Positions 57,660-64,000 are shown, numbered from the stretch's first letter. The stretch: DNA of 64,000 nucleotides from Lacisediminihabitans sp. (GCA_046597035.1 JBKJLH010000191.1:5790-69789); one strand, 5' to 3'. Notes: a model not told the origin generated them from the letters alone. Translations and numbers: made by a program.

Positions 57660-59354
57660 CTAGTCGGCCAGTGCTGCCGCCCGCACTGGAGCAGTGGCGA
57701 TGATTTTGCCCGGGTTGAAGGTGTTCGTCGGGTCGGCGGACTCGAACAGTCCCTGCATCACCGCGACCCCACTGGTCGAAATGTCCTGTTCGAGCCACGG
57801 AGCGTGCTCCAGCCCGACGCCGTGGTGGTGGGATACCGTTCCGCCGGAATCGATGAAAGCCTGCTGGATGGCGCTCTTGACCACGTCGTACTGGTCGAGC
57901 GAGTCGCCGCTCGGCAGGTAGGCGAAGGTGAAGTACAGGCAGGCACCCGAGTGATACGAGTGTGACAGATGGGCCATGATCCAGCCCTTCACCCCGATCT
58001 CGTCGAAGGCTTTGTTCGCCGCGACCATCACGTTGTCGTAGAGCCCGGAGAGCTTCGACCAGGGTGCCGAGGTCTCCGAGACATCCGCTGATCCGCCGAG
58101 ATCGAGCAGAAAGTCGCGGATGTACGGAGTGTCGAACTTCTTCTGGTCGTAGAGGGCACCGGGCCCCTTGCCCACCCCGATGCCGCCGTGCCGTTTGACG
58201 ATACGTCCGACCAGCTTCTCGTTGCGGGCGACGTGCTCGACGCTGCCCTCGTAGCCGATGAATGACAGGCACATCCTGTCGGTGTCCCAGCCCTTCGCCT
58301 TGAGGAAGACACCGAGTCCCTTGGTCACGAGGCTGGAGATGCCCGTGCTCTTTTTGCTGGTCGCGAATGAGAACACCGTTTCGCGTCCGTCGGAAACACG
58401 GGTGACCGAGGGGGTCGCATCGCTCTCCGAGATCTCCTTCATCGCCGCGAGGCCATCGGACCAGGTGGGGTAGAGGTACGCCTGGATCTCTCGCTTAGCC
58501 GGGATGCGGTGCACCTGCACCGTCACCTCGGTGATCACACCGAGCCGACCCTCGCTGCCGAGGATCATCTCGCGAACGCTCGGACCGGTGGAGGCGCTCG
58601 GCACGGCACGGATCACCAGCACGGTTCCCGGGCGCACGACACGAAGCCCCTTGGCGATGTCTGCGATATCGCCATATTTGTCGGACTGCATGCCCGACGA
58701 GCGAGTGGCAACCCATCCTCCGACCGTGGAGTGCGTGAAGCTGTCGGGGAAGTGGCCGATCGTCCAGCCGCGCTTCTCGAGCTGGGCTTCGAGGTCGGGG
58801 CCCTGGGCTCCGGCCTCGATGCGGGCGAGGCCGGAACTTTCGTCGATGTCGATCACTCGGTTGAGGCGACCGAGATCGAGCGAGATCACGGTGCGGGTCT
58901 CTTCGGCGAGCGGCTCGAGGCTGCCCACGATATTGCTTCCGCCGCCGAACGGGATGATCACGGCATCGGCCGCGACCGCGGCATCCACCACCTGCTGAAC
59001 CTCGAACTCGTCGGCCGGATAGATGACCACGTCCGGGGTGCGGGCAAGGGATCCGGCACGAACGCGGATCAGGTCACGGATGCTTTTGCCGAAGGTGTGC
59101 ACAACGCGGCTGTGGTTATCCGTAGTCACGTGCTCGTCGCCAGCGATGGCAGTGAGCCGAGCAACGAAGTCCGCGCTCGCTCGGCTGGCTGGCACGTCGA
59201 GATCGTCGAACGAGGGAGGAGCCTCTGTTGGTGCTCCCGGCTCGACCCCTAGGGCGAAGGTGAGGAAGGGCGCGAACCCGGGCTTGTCGTCGTGATGAAA
59301 TGCGACGCCATCCCGTCCCCAGCCCCACCACTTCATGTGCTGAACATCGGTCAC
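57660..59354 (-). CDS. FAD-linked alkyl-dihydroxyacetonephosphate synthase (AGPS-like)
   Basis: MKWWGWG, PFGGGSN, GHFPDS..HSTVGGWVATRSSG, GSEGRLGVIT, SGACLYFTF, SHHHGVG. Confidence 0.85.
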   Translation of the reverse strand: MTDVQHMKWWGWGRDGVAFHHDDKPGFAPFLTFALGVEPGAPTEAPPSFDDLDVPASRASADFVARLTAIAGDEHVTTDNHSRVVHTFGKSIRDLIRVRAGSLARTPDVVIYPADEFEVQQVVDAAVAADAVIIPFGGGSNIVGSLEPLAEETRTVISLDLGRLNRVIDIDESSGLARIEAGAQGPDLEAQLEKRGWTIGHFPDSFTHSTVGGWVATRSSGMQSDKYGDIADIAKGLRVVRPGTVLVIRAVPSASTGPSVREMILGSEGRLGVITEVTVQVHRIPAKREIQAYLYPTWSDGLAAMKEISESDATPSVTRVSDGRETVFSFATSKKSTGISSLVTKGLGVFLKAKGWDTDRMCLSFIGYEGSVEHVARNEKLVGRIVKRHGGIGVGKGPGALYDQKKFDTPYIRDFLLDLGGSADVSETSAPWSKLSGLYDNVMVAANKAFDEIGVKGWIMAHLSHSYHSGACLYFTFAYLPSGDSLDQYDVVKSAIQQAFIDSGGTVSHHHGVGLEHAPWLEQDISTSGVAVMQGLFESADPTNTFNPGKIIATAPVRAAALAD

Positions 59355-59385
59355 TTCTGAACTCCTTTTGATTCGGGTACCGCGG

Positions 59386-60138
59386 TCATTTCTGCCGGGG
59401 CCGTAGGTGACGGCCGAGGATATCGGCCGAATGCAGGTCTCGCAGGCGCACGATCTCCAGGCGGGTGCGCTCGGCGAATTCTCCCTTGGACTCACCTTCC
59501 GCGACTCGCAGCGGGTCTCCGAAGACTACGCCGACGGGTAACCGGCCGGGTCTCGGCCAGTTGGTGCCACGGGGATGCGCGATGTGCGCTCCAATGAGGG
59601 CCACCGGGATGCAGGGGACGTCGCAGGCGGCGGCCAGGGCGGCGGCACCCGGCTTGAACCGACCAAGCTCGCCGTCTTTGGACCTGGTACCCTCCGGGAA
59701 AATCAGTACCGGGATGCCCCGCATCAGCAGGGAGCGCGCGCTGGTCGAGGAGGTCTCCGTGCCGGTTCGACGCACCGGGAAGGCGTTGAAGAACAAAGCG
59801 GTCAGACCGCGGCGCCACCACACGTTGAAAAAGTAGTCCGCCGCGGCTCCCGCGGCGAGGTACCGGGCAAGCGGGCGGGGGAGCGACCCGACGATCAGCG
59901 GCGTGTCGAGGTGGCTGGAATGGTTGGCAACGACCACGAAGCCGCCTTTGACGTCCTTGAGCTTGTCGCTTCGAACCACGGTGACCCGGGTGAGCGACCA
60001 GATGAGAGGCTTCAGCAGCGCACGCTGCGCGAGAAAGCGGGCAACGGCCTGATAGGGCGAATTGAAACGGTCGTGAAGTCGCTTGGCAGCGGAACGCGGC
60101 CCCGCGGGGCGAGGCCGCGGAGGCATCCGCACCGTCAC
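59386..60138 (-). CDS. PlsC-family lysophospholipid/DHAP acyltransferase
   Basis: NHSSHLD (Hx4D), IFPEGTRS; GTGA overlap with the SDR stop. Confidence 0.88.
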   Translation of the reverse strand: MTVRMPPRPRPAGPRSAAKRLHDRFNSPYQAVARFLAQRALLKPLIWSLTRVTVVRSDKLKDVKGGFVVVANHSSHLDTPLIVGSLPRPLARYLAAGAAADYFFNVWWRRGLTALFFNAFPVRRTGTETSSTSARSLLMRGIPVLIFPEGTRSKDGELGRFKPGAAALAAACDVPCIPVALIGAHIAHPRGTNWPRPGRLPVGVVFGDPLRVAEGESKGEFAERTRLEIVRLRDLHSADILGRHLRPRQK

Positions 60139-60914
60139 CGCACCACGGGCTTCCGCCGCGACGACGAAATCGCGCCGGAGAATGAACGGATGGCACTCTT
60201 GGGGGCAAGGCCGGCCAACCCGATGAGAGCTCGGTAGCGAAGAGTAGGTATGGAAATCACTTTGCCTCGATCGACGTCGCGCAATGCTGCGCTCACGAGT
60301 TGTTCGGCGTCGAGCCACATAAAGTTTGGGATACTTCCCGAACGGATGCCGGCTCGCTCATGAAACTCTGTCCGCACCCAACCCGGGCAGAGTGCCGTGA
60401 CGCTGACGCCGGTGCCCCGCAGCTCCACCGCGAGCCCCTCGGTGAAGGACGTGACCCAGGCCTTGATCGACGAATAGGCGCCCATGGTGAGGAATCCGGC
60501 CGTACTCGAGACATTGACGATCTTGCCGGACCCTCGCGCAACCATCCCACGTGCCGCGGCTCCGCTCAGCACGTACACCGCGCGGCCCATCACCTCGAAT
60601 CCACGATCGAATTCCGAGACATCCGGATCGAGTGGCGACACATGCATTCCGAAACCGGCATTGTTCACCAGAAGGTCGATCGGGCGAGCGGAATCGCTCA
60701 GTCGATCGGCCACTCGTGTCACCGCGTGGCGGTCCGCGAGATCGGCCGGCAGCAACTCAACGGTGCGGCCAAGGGCTCTCAGCTCGATCGCCATCTCCTC
60801 GAGCCGCTCGGTCGACCGAGCGACGAGCACGAGATCGAATCCTCGCAGAGCGAGGAGACGAGAGAACGCGGCACCGATGCCAGACGTCCCGCCGGTGACG
60901 AGAGCTACAGCCAT
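60135..60914 (-). CDS. SDR family oxidoreductase
   Basis: TGGTSGIG, NNAG, YSSIK (YxxxK). Confidence 0.9.
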   Translation of the reverse strand: MAVALVTGGTSGIGAAFSRLLALRGFDLVLVARSTERLEEMAIELRALGRTVELLPADLADRHAVTRVADRLSDSARPIDLLVNNAGFGMHVSPLDPDVSEFDRGFEVMGRAVYVLSGAAARGMVARGSGKIVNVSSTAGFLTMGAYSSIKAWVTSFTEGLAVELRGTGVSVTALCPGWVRTEFHERAGIRSGSIPNFMWLDAEQLVSAALRDVDRGKVISIPTLRYRALIGLAGLAPKSAIRSFSGAISSSRRKPVVR

Positions 60915-60988
60915 GCCGTTAGGTTACGCTGCTCAGGGGGCAGGAGTTGCCTAAACGGGGGCTCCGATGGCAGCAAAGGCTTGAAATC

Positions 60989-61855
60989 ATGACATTCGCG
61001 AACAGCGATTCCACCACCGATTCCGCGGCGGGTTCGGGCGACGCTTCGACCGAGACTGGTGGCACGAGATTTGATGTGCGCGGCTTTGCCCGCACGGCGC
61101 AGGGCAACCACCGCGGGACACTGCATCTCTCTGACTTCGGGACCGAGCCACTCTCGGCCGAAAGCATCCGCTCCGTGCGTTATCTCGCTCGCCTCGAGAG
61201 CGGCACGATGGAGCAGCTGCGTAATCTGTTGGTAACGGCCACCCATAAGGACGCGCGTATCACCGCATTTCTCGTGACCTGGGCTTTTGAGAAATTCTGG
61301 ATCGCGGATGCCCTCGACGCCGTGCTCGAGGCGAACGGCCAGTCGAAGTCGCATGACGCCGCCGAGGGGTCCGCACGCCACTCCCGCACTGAGACTGTCG
61401 AGCGCCGCGGTCCCATCCGGCGGGCCATCGCCGGGCTCATCCAGGGGGTGCCGATCATCGGCGCTCATGTCACCACCGGCCTCGTAGACGAATGGGTCAC
61501 CCGCGCGGCATACGACCGGCTGGATGTTGCGAGCGCGAGCCCGGCGCTATCGTCGACGATTGCCACGATCGTCGCGGTGAAGGAACGCCACCGTGCCTTC
61601 TTCGACGACGAGGCAAGACGGCGACTGGCGGAAGATCCGCGCGCGGTGTCGCTTACGCGCCGCTCGCTGGAGCGCCAGGCCTGGCCGCTCGGTGCCATCG
61701 ACCGCGCGGGCGAAGACCGTTCCTTTTTTGAACACGCCGTATTCGGTGGGGACGAGGGTCGCGCGCGGGCCGCTGACATCGGGTATCGCGTCGCCGATCT
61801 GCCCGGCATGGACTCCCGCATCGGCGATGCCGTCACCCGGAAGCTGCGCGCGTGA
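60989..61855 (+). CDS. Ferritin-like fold protein with degenerate diiron ligands
   Basis: Helical; FLVTWAFEK and KERHRAFF occupy the positions of the WxxEExxH / DExRH motifs of acyl-ACP-desaturase-like proteins. Confidence 0.6.
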   Translation: MTFANSDSTTDSAAGSGDASTETGGTRFDVRGFARTAQGNHRGTLHLSDFGTEPLSAESIRSVRYLARLESGTMEQLRNLLVTATHKDARITAFLVTWAFEKFWIADALDAVLEANGQSKSHDAAEGSARHSRTETVERRGPIRRAIAGLIQGVPIIGAHVTTGLVDEWVTRAAYDRLDVASASPALSSTIATIVAVKERHRAFFDDEARRRLAEDPRAVSLTRRSLERQAWPLGAIDRAGEDRSFFEHAVFGGDEGRARAADIGYRVADLPGMDSRIGDAVTRKLRA

Positions 61856-64000
61856 GCACCCCCGAGGATGAGGTGAAGAAGGCGCCGGTTCGCACGGCTT
61901 CCGTGCGAAAGTCGCGGGCGAAGCCGAAGGCCGCCCCCGCGACGGGCCTCGGCTCCTCTCACATCTTCCTCACCGGTGGCACCGGGTTCGTCGGGCAGGC
62001 GATTCTCGAGCGGTTACTCTCGTCGCATCCGGACACCACGATCTCGCTGCTGATCCGCTCCAAGGGCAGCACCAGCGCCACCGATCGCCTCCGCACGCTG
62101 CTGCGTAAACCGGTCTTCCGCCTCTGGAGAGAGCGCGTTGGCGATGATGAGGTCGAGCGCTCCGTGCGCGAGCGCTTGCGGGTCATCGAGGGCGACCTCG
62201 GTTCGGTTCCCGCGCTCCCGGCAGACCTGGATATCGTCATCCACAGTGCCTCCTCGGTCTCCTTCGATCCGCCGATCGACCAGGCATTCGAGACCAATCT
62301 CGGGGGGGCGGTCGCGCTCTACACCGCGCTCCGCGACAGCGGTGCCGATCCGCACGTCGTGCACGTCTCGACGGCGTACGTCGGCGGCATCCGCAAGGGA
62401 ATCGTGCCAGAAGCGCGTCTCGCCCACTCCGTGCACTGGCGCAGTGAGTTCGACGCCGCCCGTGATGCCCGCGTGCGCGTCGAGATGGCCTCACGCCAGC
62501 CCGAGACCCTTCGTCGCTTTCTGGGCGAGGCCCGCGCCGACCACGGCAAGGAAGGTCCGCAGGCAGTCGCGAAAGCGTCAGAAGCCGCACGCGTGGAGTG
62601 GGTGCGTGCCCGTCTCGTCGACTACGGCCGCACCCGCGCGGAGAGCCTCGGCTGGACCGACGTCTACACGCTCACCAAGGCCTTCGCCGAACGTGCAGCG
62701 GAAGAGATGTGGGGCGATGCCGGTCACCGACTGTCTGTCGTGCGCCCCGCGATCATCGAGAGCGCGCTGCAGCATCCGTTCCCCGGCTGGATCGACGGCT
62801 TCAAGGTTGCCGATCCGCTGATCCTCGCTTACGGTCGCGGACTTCTGCCCGAATTCCCCGGTCTTCCCGATAGCGTGCTCGATGTGATCCCGGTCGACTT
62901 CGTGGTCAACGCGATCCTGGCGATCGCCGCACGCCCGTCGCCGACCGCCCAGTATGTGCATGTGAGTTCCGGCGCGAGCAACCCGCTGCCGATCCACCGA
63001 ATGCTGCAGAACATGAAAGAGTTCTTCACGGCTAACCCGATGCCGCACGTCAGCGAAGGCCAGGTGCGCGTGCCCACCTGGAGTTTTCCGGGTGATCGCA
63101 AGGTTGAGCGAGCCTTGCGCAATCAGGAGCGCTGGAACGATCGGCGCGAGCAGCTCCTCGAACGATTCCCGTCCACGGAACGCACGCGCGCTCAGATCGC
63201 GAAGGTGACGAGCCGGCGCAGTGATCTCGAGTCGCTGCGTAACTTCGCCGAGCTCTATCGCGCCTACGTGCAGACGGAGATCATCTTCGATGATCGGCAG
63301 CTGCGTGCTCTCGGCGAGTCCTTGGGGCTGAAACCCGGTGACGATACCGGGTTCGACGTGACGACGATCGACTGGGAGGACTACCTCCAGCGCGTACATT
63401 TCCCGGCCATCACCACCCTCACCCGCGCGTTCGCAGTGCGTCCGGCGGCGTCGGAAAGAGTGGAAAAAGCGCTTCCGGTCCGCACGGATGTCGTGGCCGT
63501 CTTCGATCTCGAAGGCACCGTCGTCGACTCGAACATCGTCGAGCAGTATCTCTGGGTGCGTTCGGCAGGATTCCGCAAGGCGGCCTGGCCCGGCGAAGTG
63601 GCGAGCCTGCTCGGCTCGCTCCCCGGCTACCTGAGTGCTGAGCGCCGAGACCGTGGCGAGTTCATCCGGGTGTTCCTCCGTCGTTACAGCGGGATGCCCG
63701 TCGCGAGGCTCGAGAGCGTCGTCTCCGGCGGCTACCGCGAGACCCTGCTGCGCCACACCATGCCGGCGGCGATCGCGCGTATCAAGGAACACCGCGCTGC
63801 CGGTCATCGCACCGTTCTGGTCACCGGGTCCATCGGTACGCTCGTGGCCCCCCTCGCCGATCTCTTCGACGAGGTGGTCGCGGGGTCGATGCACGAACGC
63901 GACGGCGTGCTCACCGGCTATCTCGCCCAGCCGCCGCTGGTGGATGAGGCGCGTGCAGCCTGGTTGCTTCGTTACGCCGAGACGAATGGATTCGATCTGT
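61852..64000 (+). CDS. Fatty acyl-CoA reductase (eukaryote-like FAR) fused to a HAD-IB hydrolase, 3'-partial
   Basis: Hand-translated open frame to the window end: LTGGTGFVG, HVSTAYV, YTLTK, PFPGWIDG, DVIPVDFVVNA, IDWEDY, then FDLEGT (63502) and LVTGS. Confidence 0.88.
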   Translation, partial: MSTPEDEVKKAPVRTASVRKSRAKPKAAPATGLGSSHIFLTGGTGFVGQAILERLLSSHPDTTISLLIRSKGSTSATDRLRTLLRKPVFRLWRERVGDDEVERSVRERLRVIEGDLGSVPALPADLDIVIHSASSVSFDPPIDQAFETNLGGAVALYTALRDSGADPHVVHVSTAYVGGIRKGIVPEARLAHSVHWRSEFDAARDARVRVEMASRQPETLRRFLGEARADHGKEGPQAVAKASEAARVEWVRARLVDYGRTRAESLGWTDVYTLTKAFAERAAEEMWGDAGHRLSVVRPAIIESALQHPFPGWIDGFKVADPLILAYGRGLLPEFPGLPDSVLDVIPVDFVVNAILAIAARPSPTAQYVHVSSGASNPLPIHRMLQNMKEFFTANPMPHVSEGQVRVPTWSFPGDRKVERALRNQERWNDRREQLLERFPSTERTRAQIAKVTSRRSDLESLRNFAELYRAYVQTEIIFDDRQLRALGESLGLKPGDDTGFDVTTIDWEDYLQRVHFPAITTLTRAFAVRPAASERVEKALPVRTDVVAVFDLEGTVVDSNIVEQYLWVRSAGFRKAAWPGEVASLLGSLPGYLSAERRDRGEFIRVFLRRYSGMPVARLESVVSGGYRETLLRHTMPAAIARIKEHRAAGHRTVLVTGSIGTLVAPLADLFDEVVAGSMHERDGVLTGYLAQPPLVDEARAAWLLRYAETNGFDL

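Follow-up and report, generated by a model that had tools for sequence, protein, structure and literature searches.

A six-gene, two-operon cluster predicted to direct oxygen-dependent ether glycerolipid synthesis by the AGPS route in Lacisediminihabitans and other actinobacteria

We analyzed a stretch of DNA of 64,000 nucleotides from Lacisediminihabitans sp. (GCA_046597035.1 JBKJLH010000191.1:5790-69789), which is called the window below, together with the contig that continues past its 3' end. In this aerobic actinobacterium of soil or freshwater, the last part of the window carries a gene cluster that includes a homologue of the flavoenzyme AGPS. Judging from the sequence, we consider that the locus is a six-gene cluster in two operons for the oxygen-dependent synthesis of ether glycerolipids through the AGPS route, that is, through acyl-dihydroxyacetone phosphate (acyl-DHAP), and we put the probability of this reading at about 75%. 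The cluster is a variant of the AGPS ether-lipid pathway that is undescribed in the searchable literature.

The listing of open reading frames and direct reading of the window and the contig gave two divergent operons with the gene order FER2<FAR-HAD<FER1 | SDR>AT>AGPS. Here FAR-HAD is a fatty acyl reductase (FAR) fused to a HAD domain, SDR is a classical short-chain dehydrogenase/reductase, AT is an acyltransferase, and FER1 and FER2 are ferritin-like proteins. The features are as follows, where L001 is the numbering of a contig stretch that reaches past the 3' end of the window.

57660-59336, minus strand: AGPS homologue, 558 aa, FAD_binding_4 and FAD-oxidase_C; likely start ATG at 59336 (MKWWGWG...), frame open to 59495
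59386-60138, minus strand: PlsC/AGPAT-type acyltransferase (AT), 250 aa, Pfam Acyltransferase (PF01553); GTG start
60135-60914, minus strand: classical SDR, 259 aa, adh_short
60915-60988: divergent intergenic gap of 74 bp, read directly between the SDR start and the FER1 ATG
60989-61855, plus strand: FER1, ferritin-like, 288 aa, no Pfam match; ATG start
61852-64000 and 188 bp past the window end (L001:353-2689), plus strand: FAR-HAD fusion, 778 aa, NAD_binding_4, Sterile and HAD; GTG start
L001:2714-3508 (window-equivalent 64213-65007), plus strand, outside the window: FER2, the second ferritin-like gene, 264 aa
L001:3603-3673 (window-equivalent about 65102-65172), minus strand: tRNA-Thr (TGT), directly after FER2, bounding the cluster

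The original prediction, made from the window only, had placed SDR, acyltransferase and AGPS on the minus strand and a ferritin-like gene and FAR-HAD on the plus strand, with a GTGA coupling in each operon. All of this was read in the sequence. On the minus strand the SDR stop overlaps the in-frame GTG of AT (60138 to 60135), and on the plus strand the FER1 stop overlaps the GTG of FAR-HAD (61852-61855). The divergent gap that it described is present, at a counted length of 74 bp in place of 75 bp. Its five genes are all found in the window, and the total of the cluster rises to six with FER2, which begins 24 bp after FAR-HAD beyond the window end and belongs to the cluster. At its far side the minus operon is closed by a convergent DsbA-like gene. 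The 74-bp gap is presumed to be the promoter region shared by both operons; a scan of it for the sigma-70 consensus gave no match, which is uninformative in a high-GC actinobacterial host.

The oxidase of the cluster is a true member of the AGPS family. The Pfam domains FAD_binding_4 and FAD-oxidase_C were detected with E values of 4e-33 and 1.6e-34, respectively. When the protein was compared with the PDB by phmmer, it matched AGPS of Dictyostelium (2uuu; E 1.9e-120, 406 bits) and of guinea pig (4bby; E 8.8e-91, 308 bits), whereas the next-best flavoprotein, a member of the VAO family, scored 81 bits and all others scored 81 bits or less. The NCBIfam models of GlcD and lactate dehydrogenase were far under their cut-offs. 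Residues R313, Y468 and H503-505 align to R419, Y578 and H615-617 of the guinea-pig enzyme and are invariant in all 80 orthologues; in the guinea-pig enzyme, Arg419, Tyr578 and the His615-617 loop reportedly have roles in the active site. The motifs that had been pointed out beforehand are present as well. That is, SHHHGVG and GACLYFTF (GxCxYFxF) in the AGPS homologue and PFPGWIDG in the reductase are fully or almost fully conserved across 58-80 orthologues. The score margin and the active-site residues rule out a D-lactate/glycolate-type enzyme, or a 2-hydroxyglutarate dehydrogenase, and agree with the earlier grouping of this oxidase with AGPS. The exchange between acyl-DHAP and fatty alcohol is the predicted activity of the protein.

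The FAR-HAD fusion matches the Pfam families NAD_binding_4 (E 2.8e-46), Sterile, and HAD (PF12710; E 7e-23). Its FAR half matches a fatty acyl-CoA reductase in the PDB (7eoz) over residues 31-520 with an E value of 1.4e-44, and the motifs TGGTGFVG, YxxxK and PFPGWIDG are conserved among orthologues. These features predict that the FAR half is an alcohol-forming fatty acyl reductase. The HAD-IB half keeps the motifs FDLEGT, LVTGS and GDSHAD, and motif II (T658) and motif IV (D724 and D728) are canonical. Motif I reads D552-L-E554-G-T, that is, DxE and not DxDx(T/V), and E554 at the Asp+2 general-acid position is invariant in 58 of 58 orthologues. Because of this DxE in place of DxD, the domain is only a putative phosphatase. 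Thus, of the earlier proposal that the HAD domain could dephosphorylate the product, the presence of the domain is borne out, and motif I does not fit. As side observations, in one genome FAR-HAD is matched in two adjoining parts (residues 10-363 and 357-765; G041:C1:627782-630115), maybe through a frameshift or a split gene, and one Microbacteriaceae genome carries a second full-length FAR-HAD paralogue, 40% identical, on another contig (G047:C86:262-2568).

AT belongs to PF01553 (E 2e-21), and neither its HX4D motif (NHSSHLD) nor its FPEGTR motif varies in 78 orthologues. Its sole relative in the PDB is PlsC of T. maritima (5kym). We therefore describe AT as AGPAT/PlsC-like and not GNPAT-like, and as a candidate DHAP (or sn-2) acyltransferase, of which the DHAP role is inferred. 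SDR matches adh_short with an E value of 2.8e-44; TGxxxGxG, NNAG and S-YxxxK are kept in 78 orthologues, the Ser-Tyr-Lys triad is intact, and SDR is the first gene of the SDR-AT-AGPS triad in every locus compared. We regard it as a candidate acyl/alkyl-DHAP reductase. The earlier view of an AGPS-dependent ether-lipid locus is upheld by these results, as FAR, the PlsC-type acyltransferase and SDR are intact and co-inherited with AGPS. The suggestion that the cluster is complete, with a candidate for every step, goes further than the sequence shows, since the acyltransferase is PlsC/AGPAT-like and its role as DHAP acyltransferase is putative.

From the gene content, the family membership, the intact catalytic motifs and the co-inheritance of these genes, we predict the substrates and products of the pathway as follows. 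The FAR domain would reduce a branched-chain acyl thioester to the fatty alcohol, and the PlsC-type acyltransferase would make 1-acyl-DHAP. AGPS would then swap the acyl group for the alcohol by means of its flavin to give 1-O-alkyl-DHAP, the ketone of which would be reduced by SDR to 1-O-alkyl-sn-glycerol-3-phosphate, a compound that could enter ordinary phospholipid or glycolipid assembly. The probable task of the HAD domain is to process a phosphorylated ether intermediate or to anchor the reductase to the pathway. FER2, with its di-iron site and its fold like that of soluble desaturases, most likely tailors the chain together with FER1.

In order to clarify the distribution of the cluster, we used 151 Microbacteriaceae genomes (an even sample), 401 Actinomycetota genomes and 80 related loci (L014-L093). 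An AGPS orthologue is present in 41 of the 151 genomes, and FAR-HAD is present in exactly those 41, at a distance of 2.5-4.5 kb. Among named genomes, the best match to the window is Lacisediminihabitans sp. H27-G8, at 95%, and the window is Lacisediminihabitans/Frigoribacterium-like. The order FER2<FAR-HAD<FER1 | SDR>AT>AGPS recurs in about 55 of the 80 loci, and Frondihabitans keeps it too. Because of this recurrence and of the 41/41 co-occurrence of AGPS and FAR-HAD, the arrangement is not due to chance. The six-gene order was found in Frigoribacterium, Agreia, Subtercola, Herbiconiux, Glaciihabitans, Galbitalea, Rhodoglobus, Salinibacterium and others, and also in about ten Streptomycetaceae genomes and one Jiangellaceae genome, so that the comparison of synteny proposed with the original prediction gave a conserved order in all three families. 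In Propionibacteriales-type loci only SDR-AT-AGPS stay linked. A full-length, unlinked FAR-HAD lies elsewhere in all five triad-only genomes searched (Propionibacteriales and related), and FER2 is present in two of these five and absent in three. In the AGPS tree of the 80 loci, the Streptomycetaceae nest inside the Microbacteriaceae, next to Schumannella, and Subtercola groups with the Propionibacteriales. We therefore think that the cluster moved laterally among actinobacterial orders.

Some further variation was seen in these genomes. Subtercola and Phytoactinopolyspora carry an additional acyltransferase-like gene (31-34% identity to AT) with some 2 kb of other DNA, placed between or beside FER2 and FAR-HAD; the insertions are lineage-specific (about 2000-2600 in L047 and L050, both Subtercola, and about 1683-2243 in L034). 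A divergent AGPS paralogue of 34-38% identity, unaccompanied by FAR-HAD, occurs in six further Microbacteriaceae genomes (G013, G034, G076, G077, G092 and G126). Of the 401 Actinomycetota genomes, 79 encode AGPS-family homologues of 31-39% identity, often two per genome.

Database labels call FER2 'ferritin-like domain-containing' or 'hypothetical'. Its six di-iron ligands E45, E77, H80, E141, E171 and H174 (E, ExxH, E, ExxH) are invariant in 32 orthologues, and its score against the Pfam family FA_desaturase_2 is 22.7 bits, exactly at the cut-off. The AlphaFold2 model of FER2 has a pLDDT of 88.5 and a pTM of 0.88. The best PDB matches of this model by Foldseek are plant acyl-ACP desaturases, DesA2 of M. 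tuberculosis, and fatty-acid-binding R2-like oxidases (R2lox), with an E value of 7e-4 and TM scores of 0.5-0.65. Searches of the PDB by sequence with FER1 and with a FER2 profile gave just a weak match to DesA2 and one to a designed helix bundle. FER2 has the same four-helix di-iron core and ligand set as the soluble acyl-ACP desaturases (castor Δ9, Thunbergia Δ6 and ivy), DesA2 and the R2-like oxidases. It differs from the acyl-ACP desaturases in that the identity is 15-18%, that the plant enzymes are longer by about 80-100 residues, and that it has an obligatory degenerate paralogue, FER1. This obligatory partner suggests a heterodimer.

FER1 is about 31% identical to FER2 over the full length. 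In FER1 the residue at H80 of FER2 is I, L, V or M (EKFWI), that at E171 is K or R (KERH), and H174 has become Q in some lineages; FER1 thus has lost two or three metal ligands and lacks the six-ligand di-iron site. The identity among orthologues is 39-86% for FER1 and 62-95% for FER2, meaning that FER1 evolves faster and that FER2 is the best-conserved protein of the plus operon. Of the 44 genomes of the Microbacteriaceae sample that have FER2, 43 have it as a pair with FER1. One genome (G096:C1; L096:7868-9517, minus strand) encodes a single in-frame FER1-FER2 fusion of 549 aa with no stop, of which residues 18-280 are FER1-like and residues 287-549 are FER2-like; it is a Microbacteriaceae genome without AGPS or FAR-HAD, and a further genome of its genus has FER2 without FER1. 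The fusion hints that both proteins act as one complex. From these sequences, FER1 is a degenerate FER2 paralogue and a probable non-catalytic subunit, and FER2 is probably the catalytic subunit of the heterodimer.

A FAR beside a ferritin-like di-iron protein recalls the cyanobacterial pair of a reductase and aldehyde-deformylating oxygenase (ADO). This likeness counts for another explanation, namely that the cluster makes fatty alcohols, wax esters or hydrocarbons, with FAR yielding alcohols or aldehydes, the di-iron protein acting like ADO or a desaturase and the flavoprotein acting as an alcohol or hydroxy-acid oxidase. It also agrees with this explanation that bacterial fatty acyl reductases often serve wax ester synthesis (PMC11948995). 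We nevertheless consider it improbable. The flavoprotein is identified as an AGPS with more than 300 bits to spare and retains AGPS-specific residues, the acyltransferase and SDR appear from the gene order to be always co-transcribed with AGPS, and a WS/DGAT (wax ester synthase) domain was not found in the source genome in a search made without a positive control. In addition, ADO is not among the top 50 fold matches of FER2.

Acid methanolysis of vinyl-ether lipids gives rise to dimethyl acetals (DMA). Taxonomic papers have reported DMA from aerobic Microbacteriaceae since 2000. Subtercola species contain 20-30% DMA by gas chromatography-mass spectrometry (GC-MS), as iso-16:0, anteiso-15:0 and anteiso-17:0 DMA, and Agreia contains a little (PMC5945732). 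For F. faeni and F. adelgis, 'anteiso-15:0 aldehyde/DMA' is reported under a DSMZ label (PMC12823222). The original prediction, which knew of no description of ether lipids for Microbacteriaceae, overlooked this literature with its DMA in Subtercola, Frigoribacterium and Agreia. The cluster is carried by the genomes of S. lobariae, Subtercola sp. Z020, F. faeni AS3.2 and Agreia pratensis. The DMA reported from the three genera point to vinyl-ether lipids (plasmalogens), and not to alkylglycerols alone.

In a further explanation, the cluster is catabolic and salvages exogenous ether lipids of plants, animals or prey, with AGPS in exchange mode and the di-iron protein cleaving ethers like alkylglycerol monooxygenase. 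Many of the cluster hosts are plant- or lichen-associated according to the titles of their genome records, and HAD and kinase domains serve the salvage of animal ether lipids (ACAD10; PMC13596139). On the other hand, a FAR that works reductively to form alcohols belongs to biosynthesis, neither a transporter nor a lipase or kinase was seen among the cluster genes in the open reading frames and by contig reading, and the DMA chain types of Subtercola match its own branched fatty acids (PMC5945732). We consider salvage very improbable.

Frondihabitans was considered as a DMA-free negative control. This control failed: F. cladoniiphilus carries the full six-gene set, although the genus is stated to be without DMA (PMC5945732). 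A characteristic component of Frondihabitans is 'C14:0 2-OH'. In four Subtercola type strains, the MIDI values of 'C14:0 2-OH' are 15.6, 9.9, 10.4 and 3.9 (PMC9287328 Table 2), and the GC-MS values of iso-16:0 DMA are 17.0, 13.3, 11.9 and 6.9 (PMC5945732 Table 2); in three of these strains, 14:0 2-OH was absent by GC-MS (PMC5945732). The MIDI label tracks the iso-16:0 DMA in these strains, and it may therefore be mislabelled DMA. The same MIDI peak amounts to 17.0% in F. faeni, 4.2% in G. tibetensis and a trace in L. profunda (PMC7033078 Table 2). From these published tables we infer that the MIDI label 'C14:0 2-OH' often hides DMA. Ether lipids in Microbacteriaceae, for example in Frondihabitans, may accordingly be under-reported.

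We looked for enzymes that might form a vinyl ether in these bacteria. PF10520 (CarF/PEDS1, Lipid_desat) was found neither in the source genome nor in any of the 151 Microbacteriaceae genomes or five named cluster-bearing genomes (S. lobariae, F. faeni, A. pratensis, Subtercola Z020 and G. tibetensis), in a search for which no control genome carries the family. HGD-D of the PlsA type (PF06050) is absent from the source genome and the same five genomes, in a search for which T. maritima, E. coli and M. jannaschii served as positive controls, and it occurs in 4 of the 151 Microbacteriaceae genomes, two with and two without the cluster. As sources of a vinyl ether, CarF was thus not found, and a PlsA-type enzyme is rare and its distribution unrelated to the cluster. 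The family of the membrane fatty acid desaturases of the source genome is present in 142 of the 151 genomes regardless of the cluster, which rules out such a desaturase as an oxidase specific to the cluster. Among oxygenase-like components, only the FER pair has a distribution that follows AGPS and FAR-HAD; that is, 40 of the 44 Microbacteriaceae genomes with the pair also hold the AGPS cluster. We tentatively propose that FER2 and FER1 could form a soluble di-iron plasmanyl Δ1'-desaturase that converts the alkyl ether to the alk-1-enyl (plasmalogen) ether. This role is possible and somewhat doubtful; it would explain the DMA reported from the cluster-bearing genera.

Several observations weigh against the proposed pathway or its vinyl-ether step. 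As described above, HAD motif I is DxE, AT is PlsC-like rather than GNPAT-like, the search for CarF had no positive control, and Frondihabitans is reported to be free of DMA. The AGPS route accounts for only a minor share of the ether lipids in M. xanthus (PMC9131029). L. profunda, the type of the nearest described genus, gives only a trace of the apparent DMA peak (PMC7033078), and this trace warns that carriage of the cluster need not mean abundant product in standard culture. Four Microbacteriaceae genomes (G024, G066, G096 and G119), which are Humibacter-, Leifsonia- or Agromyces-like, hold an adjacent FER pair without AGPS or FAR-HAD, and no other lipid gene lies near the pair in them (L094 for G024, L095 for G066 and L096 for G096; also G119). 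FER2-family genes of 37-45% identity are present in 30 of the 401 Actinomycetota genomes, and only 3 of these 30 have an AGPS homologue. At six distant FER2 loci the gene is single, and neither FAR nor AGPS nor an acyltransferase is encoded in its vicinity. Another actinobacterial family includes two genomes in which a distant FER2 homologue (about 44% identity) sits directly downstream of GGDEF-EAL genes (L099:7217-10014 and L103:8834-11674). No shared lipid theme was seen around the distant homologues; GGDEF-EAL, an anti-sigma factor and an ABC ATPase are found instead. The branch linked to GGDEF-EAL suggests a different role, perhaps sensing. As distant homologues occur without AGPS or lipid neighbours, we think that the wider FER2 family has other roles, and we therefore lowered our estimate of a vinyl-ether function to the tentative level given above.

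These observations bear on an alternative that we take seriously and rate at a little below even odds. According to it, the cluster makes saturated 1-O-alkyl lipids only, and the DMA of the relatives come from another enzyme or from free aldehydes. The FER pair would then do another job, such as desaturation or hydroxylation of the chain elsewhere on the lipid, sensing of oxygen or iron, or protection. The FER pairs without AGPS, the distant homologues unlinked to lipid genes, the AGPS triad without any FER2 in three of the five Propionibacteriales-type genomes, and the wording 'aldehyde/DMA' of the DSMZ label (PMC12823222) all agree with this alternative. In contrast, no other candidate enzyme for the vinyl ether emerged from the CarF and PlsA-type searches, the folds closest to FER2 are fatty-acyl desaturases, and FER2 is the best conserved of the plus operon and is translationally packed against FAR-HAD. 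Furthermore, DMA at 20-30% of the profile are too high for stray aldehyde (PMC5945732).

We compared the putative ether-lipid pathway of the cluster with known systems. Among bacteria, the closest precedent is the operon MXAN_1676-1675-1674 of M. xanthus, which encodes AGPS, a FAR-GNPAT fusion, and a protein of the NAD-epimerase family (PMC9131029). Deletion of MXAN_1676 lowers both alkyl and alkenyl ether lipids (PMC9131029, PMC13012113). The two systems resemble each other in being bacterial, aerobic and AGPS-centred, in having a FAR and an acyltransferase, and in that a HAD protein is tied to ether lipids. That is, ElbB, a HAD protein of the other ether-lipid operon of M. xanthus (elbA-E), is needed for normal ether lipids (PMC9131029). 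In animals, the HAD domain of ACAD10 dephosphorylates an alkyl-glycerophosphate (PMC13596139). Both may bear on the fused HAD domain as analogies only. The systems differ in that FAR is fused here to HAD-IB and there to GNPAT, that a small PlsC-type acyltransferase is used here and a classical SDR takes the place of the epimerase-family protein, and that two ferritin-like genes are added here, with no CarF/PEDS1 found in the Microbacteriaceae sample. The multidomain ElbD of the myxobacteria (acyl-CoA synthase-ACP-FAR-AGPAT) also has no counterpart, as FAR is fused here to HAD only.

The eukaryotic peroxisomal route consists of GNPAT, FAR1/2, AGPS, DHRS7B/PexRAP and PEDS1/TMEM189. The AGPS homologue is similar to its AGPS across the whole catalytic region, with the same active-site residues. 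FAR is eukaryote-like (NAD_binding_4 and Sterile, with PFPGWIDG), and the reductase candidate is an SDR, as is DHRS7B (PMC13200781). In contrast, no GNPAT-type acyltransferase and no PEDS1 were found here, the genes are clustered and translationally coupled, and the HAD fusion and the di-iron pair are without counterpart there. The anaerobic plasmalogen synthase PlsA/PlsR (Ger) would lead to the same product class, a vinyl-ether lipid giving DMA, by an unrelated chemistry that is reductive and oxygen-sensitive. AgpS of M. tuberculosis (Rv3107c), which we take to be an annotated and uncharacterised AGPS-family homologue outside any such six-gene cluster, is likewise actinobacterial and of the AGPS family, but it belongs to a different subfamily.

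Myxobacteria have been called 'exceptional among aerobic bacteria' for their plasmalogens (PMC9131029), and a 2026 PNAS survey placed the aerobic plasmalogen capacity, defined by PEDS1 with AGPS, GNPAT and FAR, 'mostly within Myxococcota' (PMC13012113; PMC9131029). Actinobacteria are unmentioned in both papers. Our search of the literature on plasmalogens in Microbacteriaceae found nothing relevant, and the searchable literature offers no genetic explanation of their DMA. The cluster gives a concrete and testable explanation for the ether bond, and it provides a candidate vinyl-ether desaturase that is independent of PEDS1. It also offers a compact set of genes for soluble enzymes for ether-lipid engineering and is relevant to the spread of the AGPS pathway in bacteria. 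If our proposal for the FER pair is true, FER2/FER1 would be a third, independently evolved route to the vinyl ether, after the membrane-bound PEDS1/CarF and the anaerobic PlsA/PlsR. In that case, many strictly aerobic actinobacteria, that is, Microbacteriaceae and some Streptomyces, would be genuine plasmalogen producers, which would contradict the view that the plasmalogens of aerobic bacteria are essentially confined to Myxococcota.

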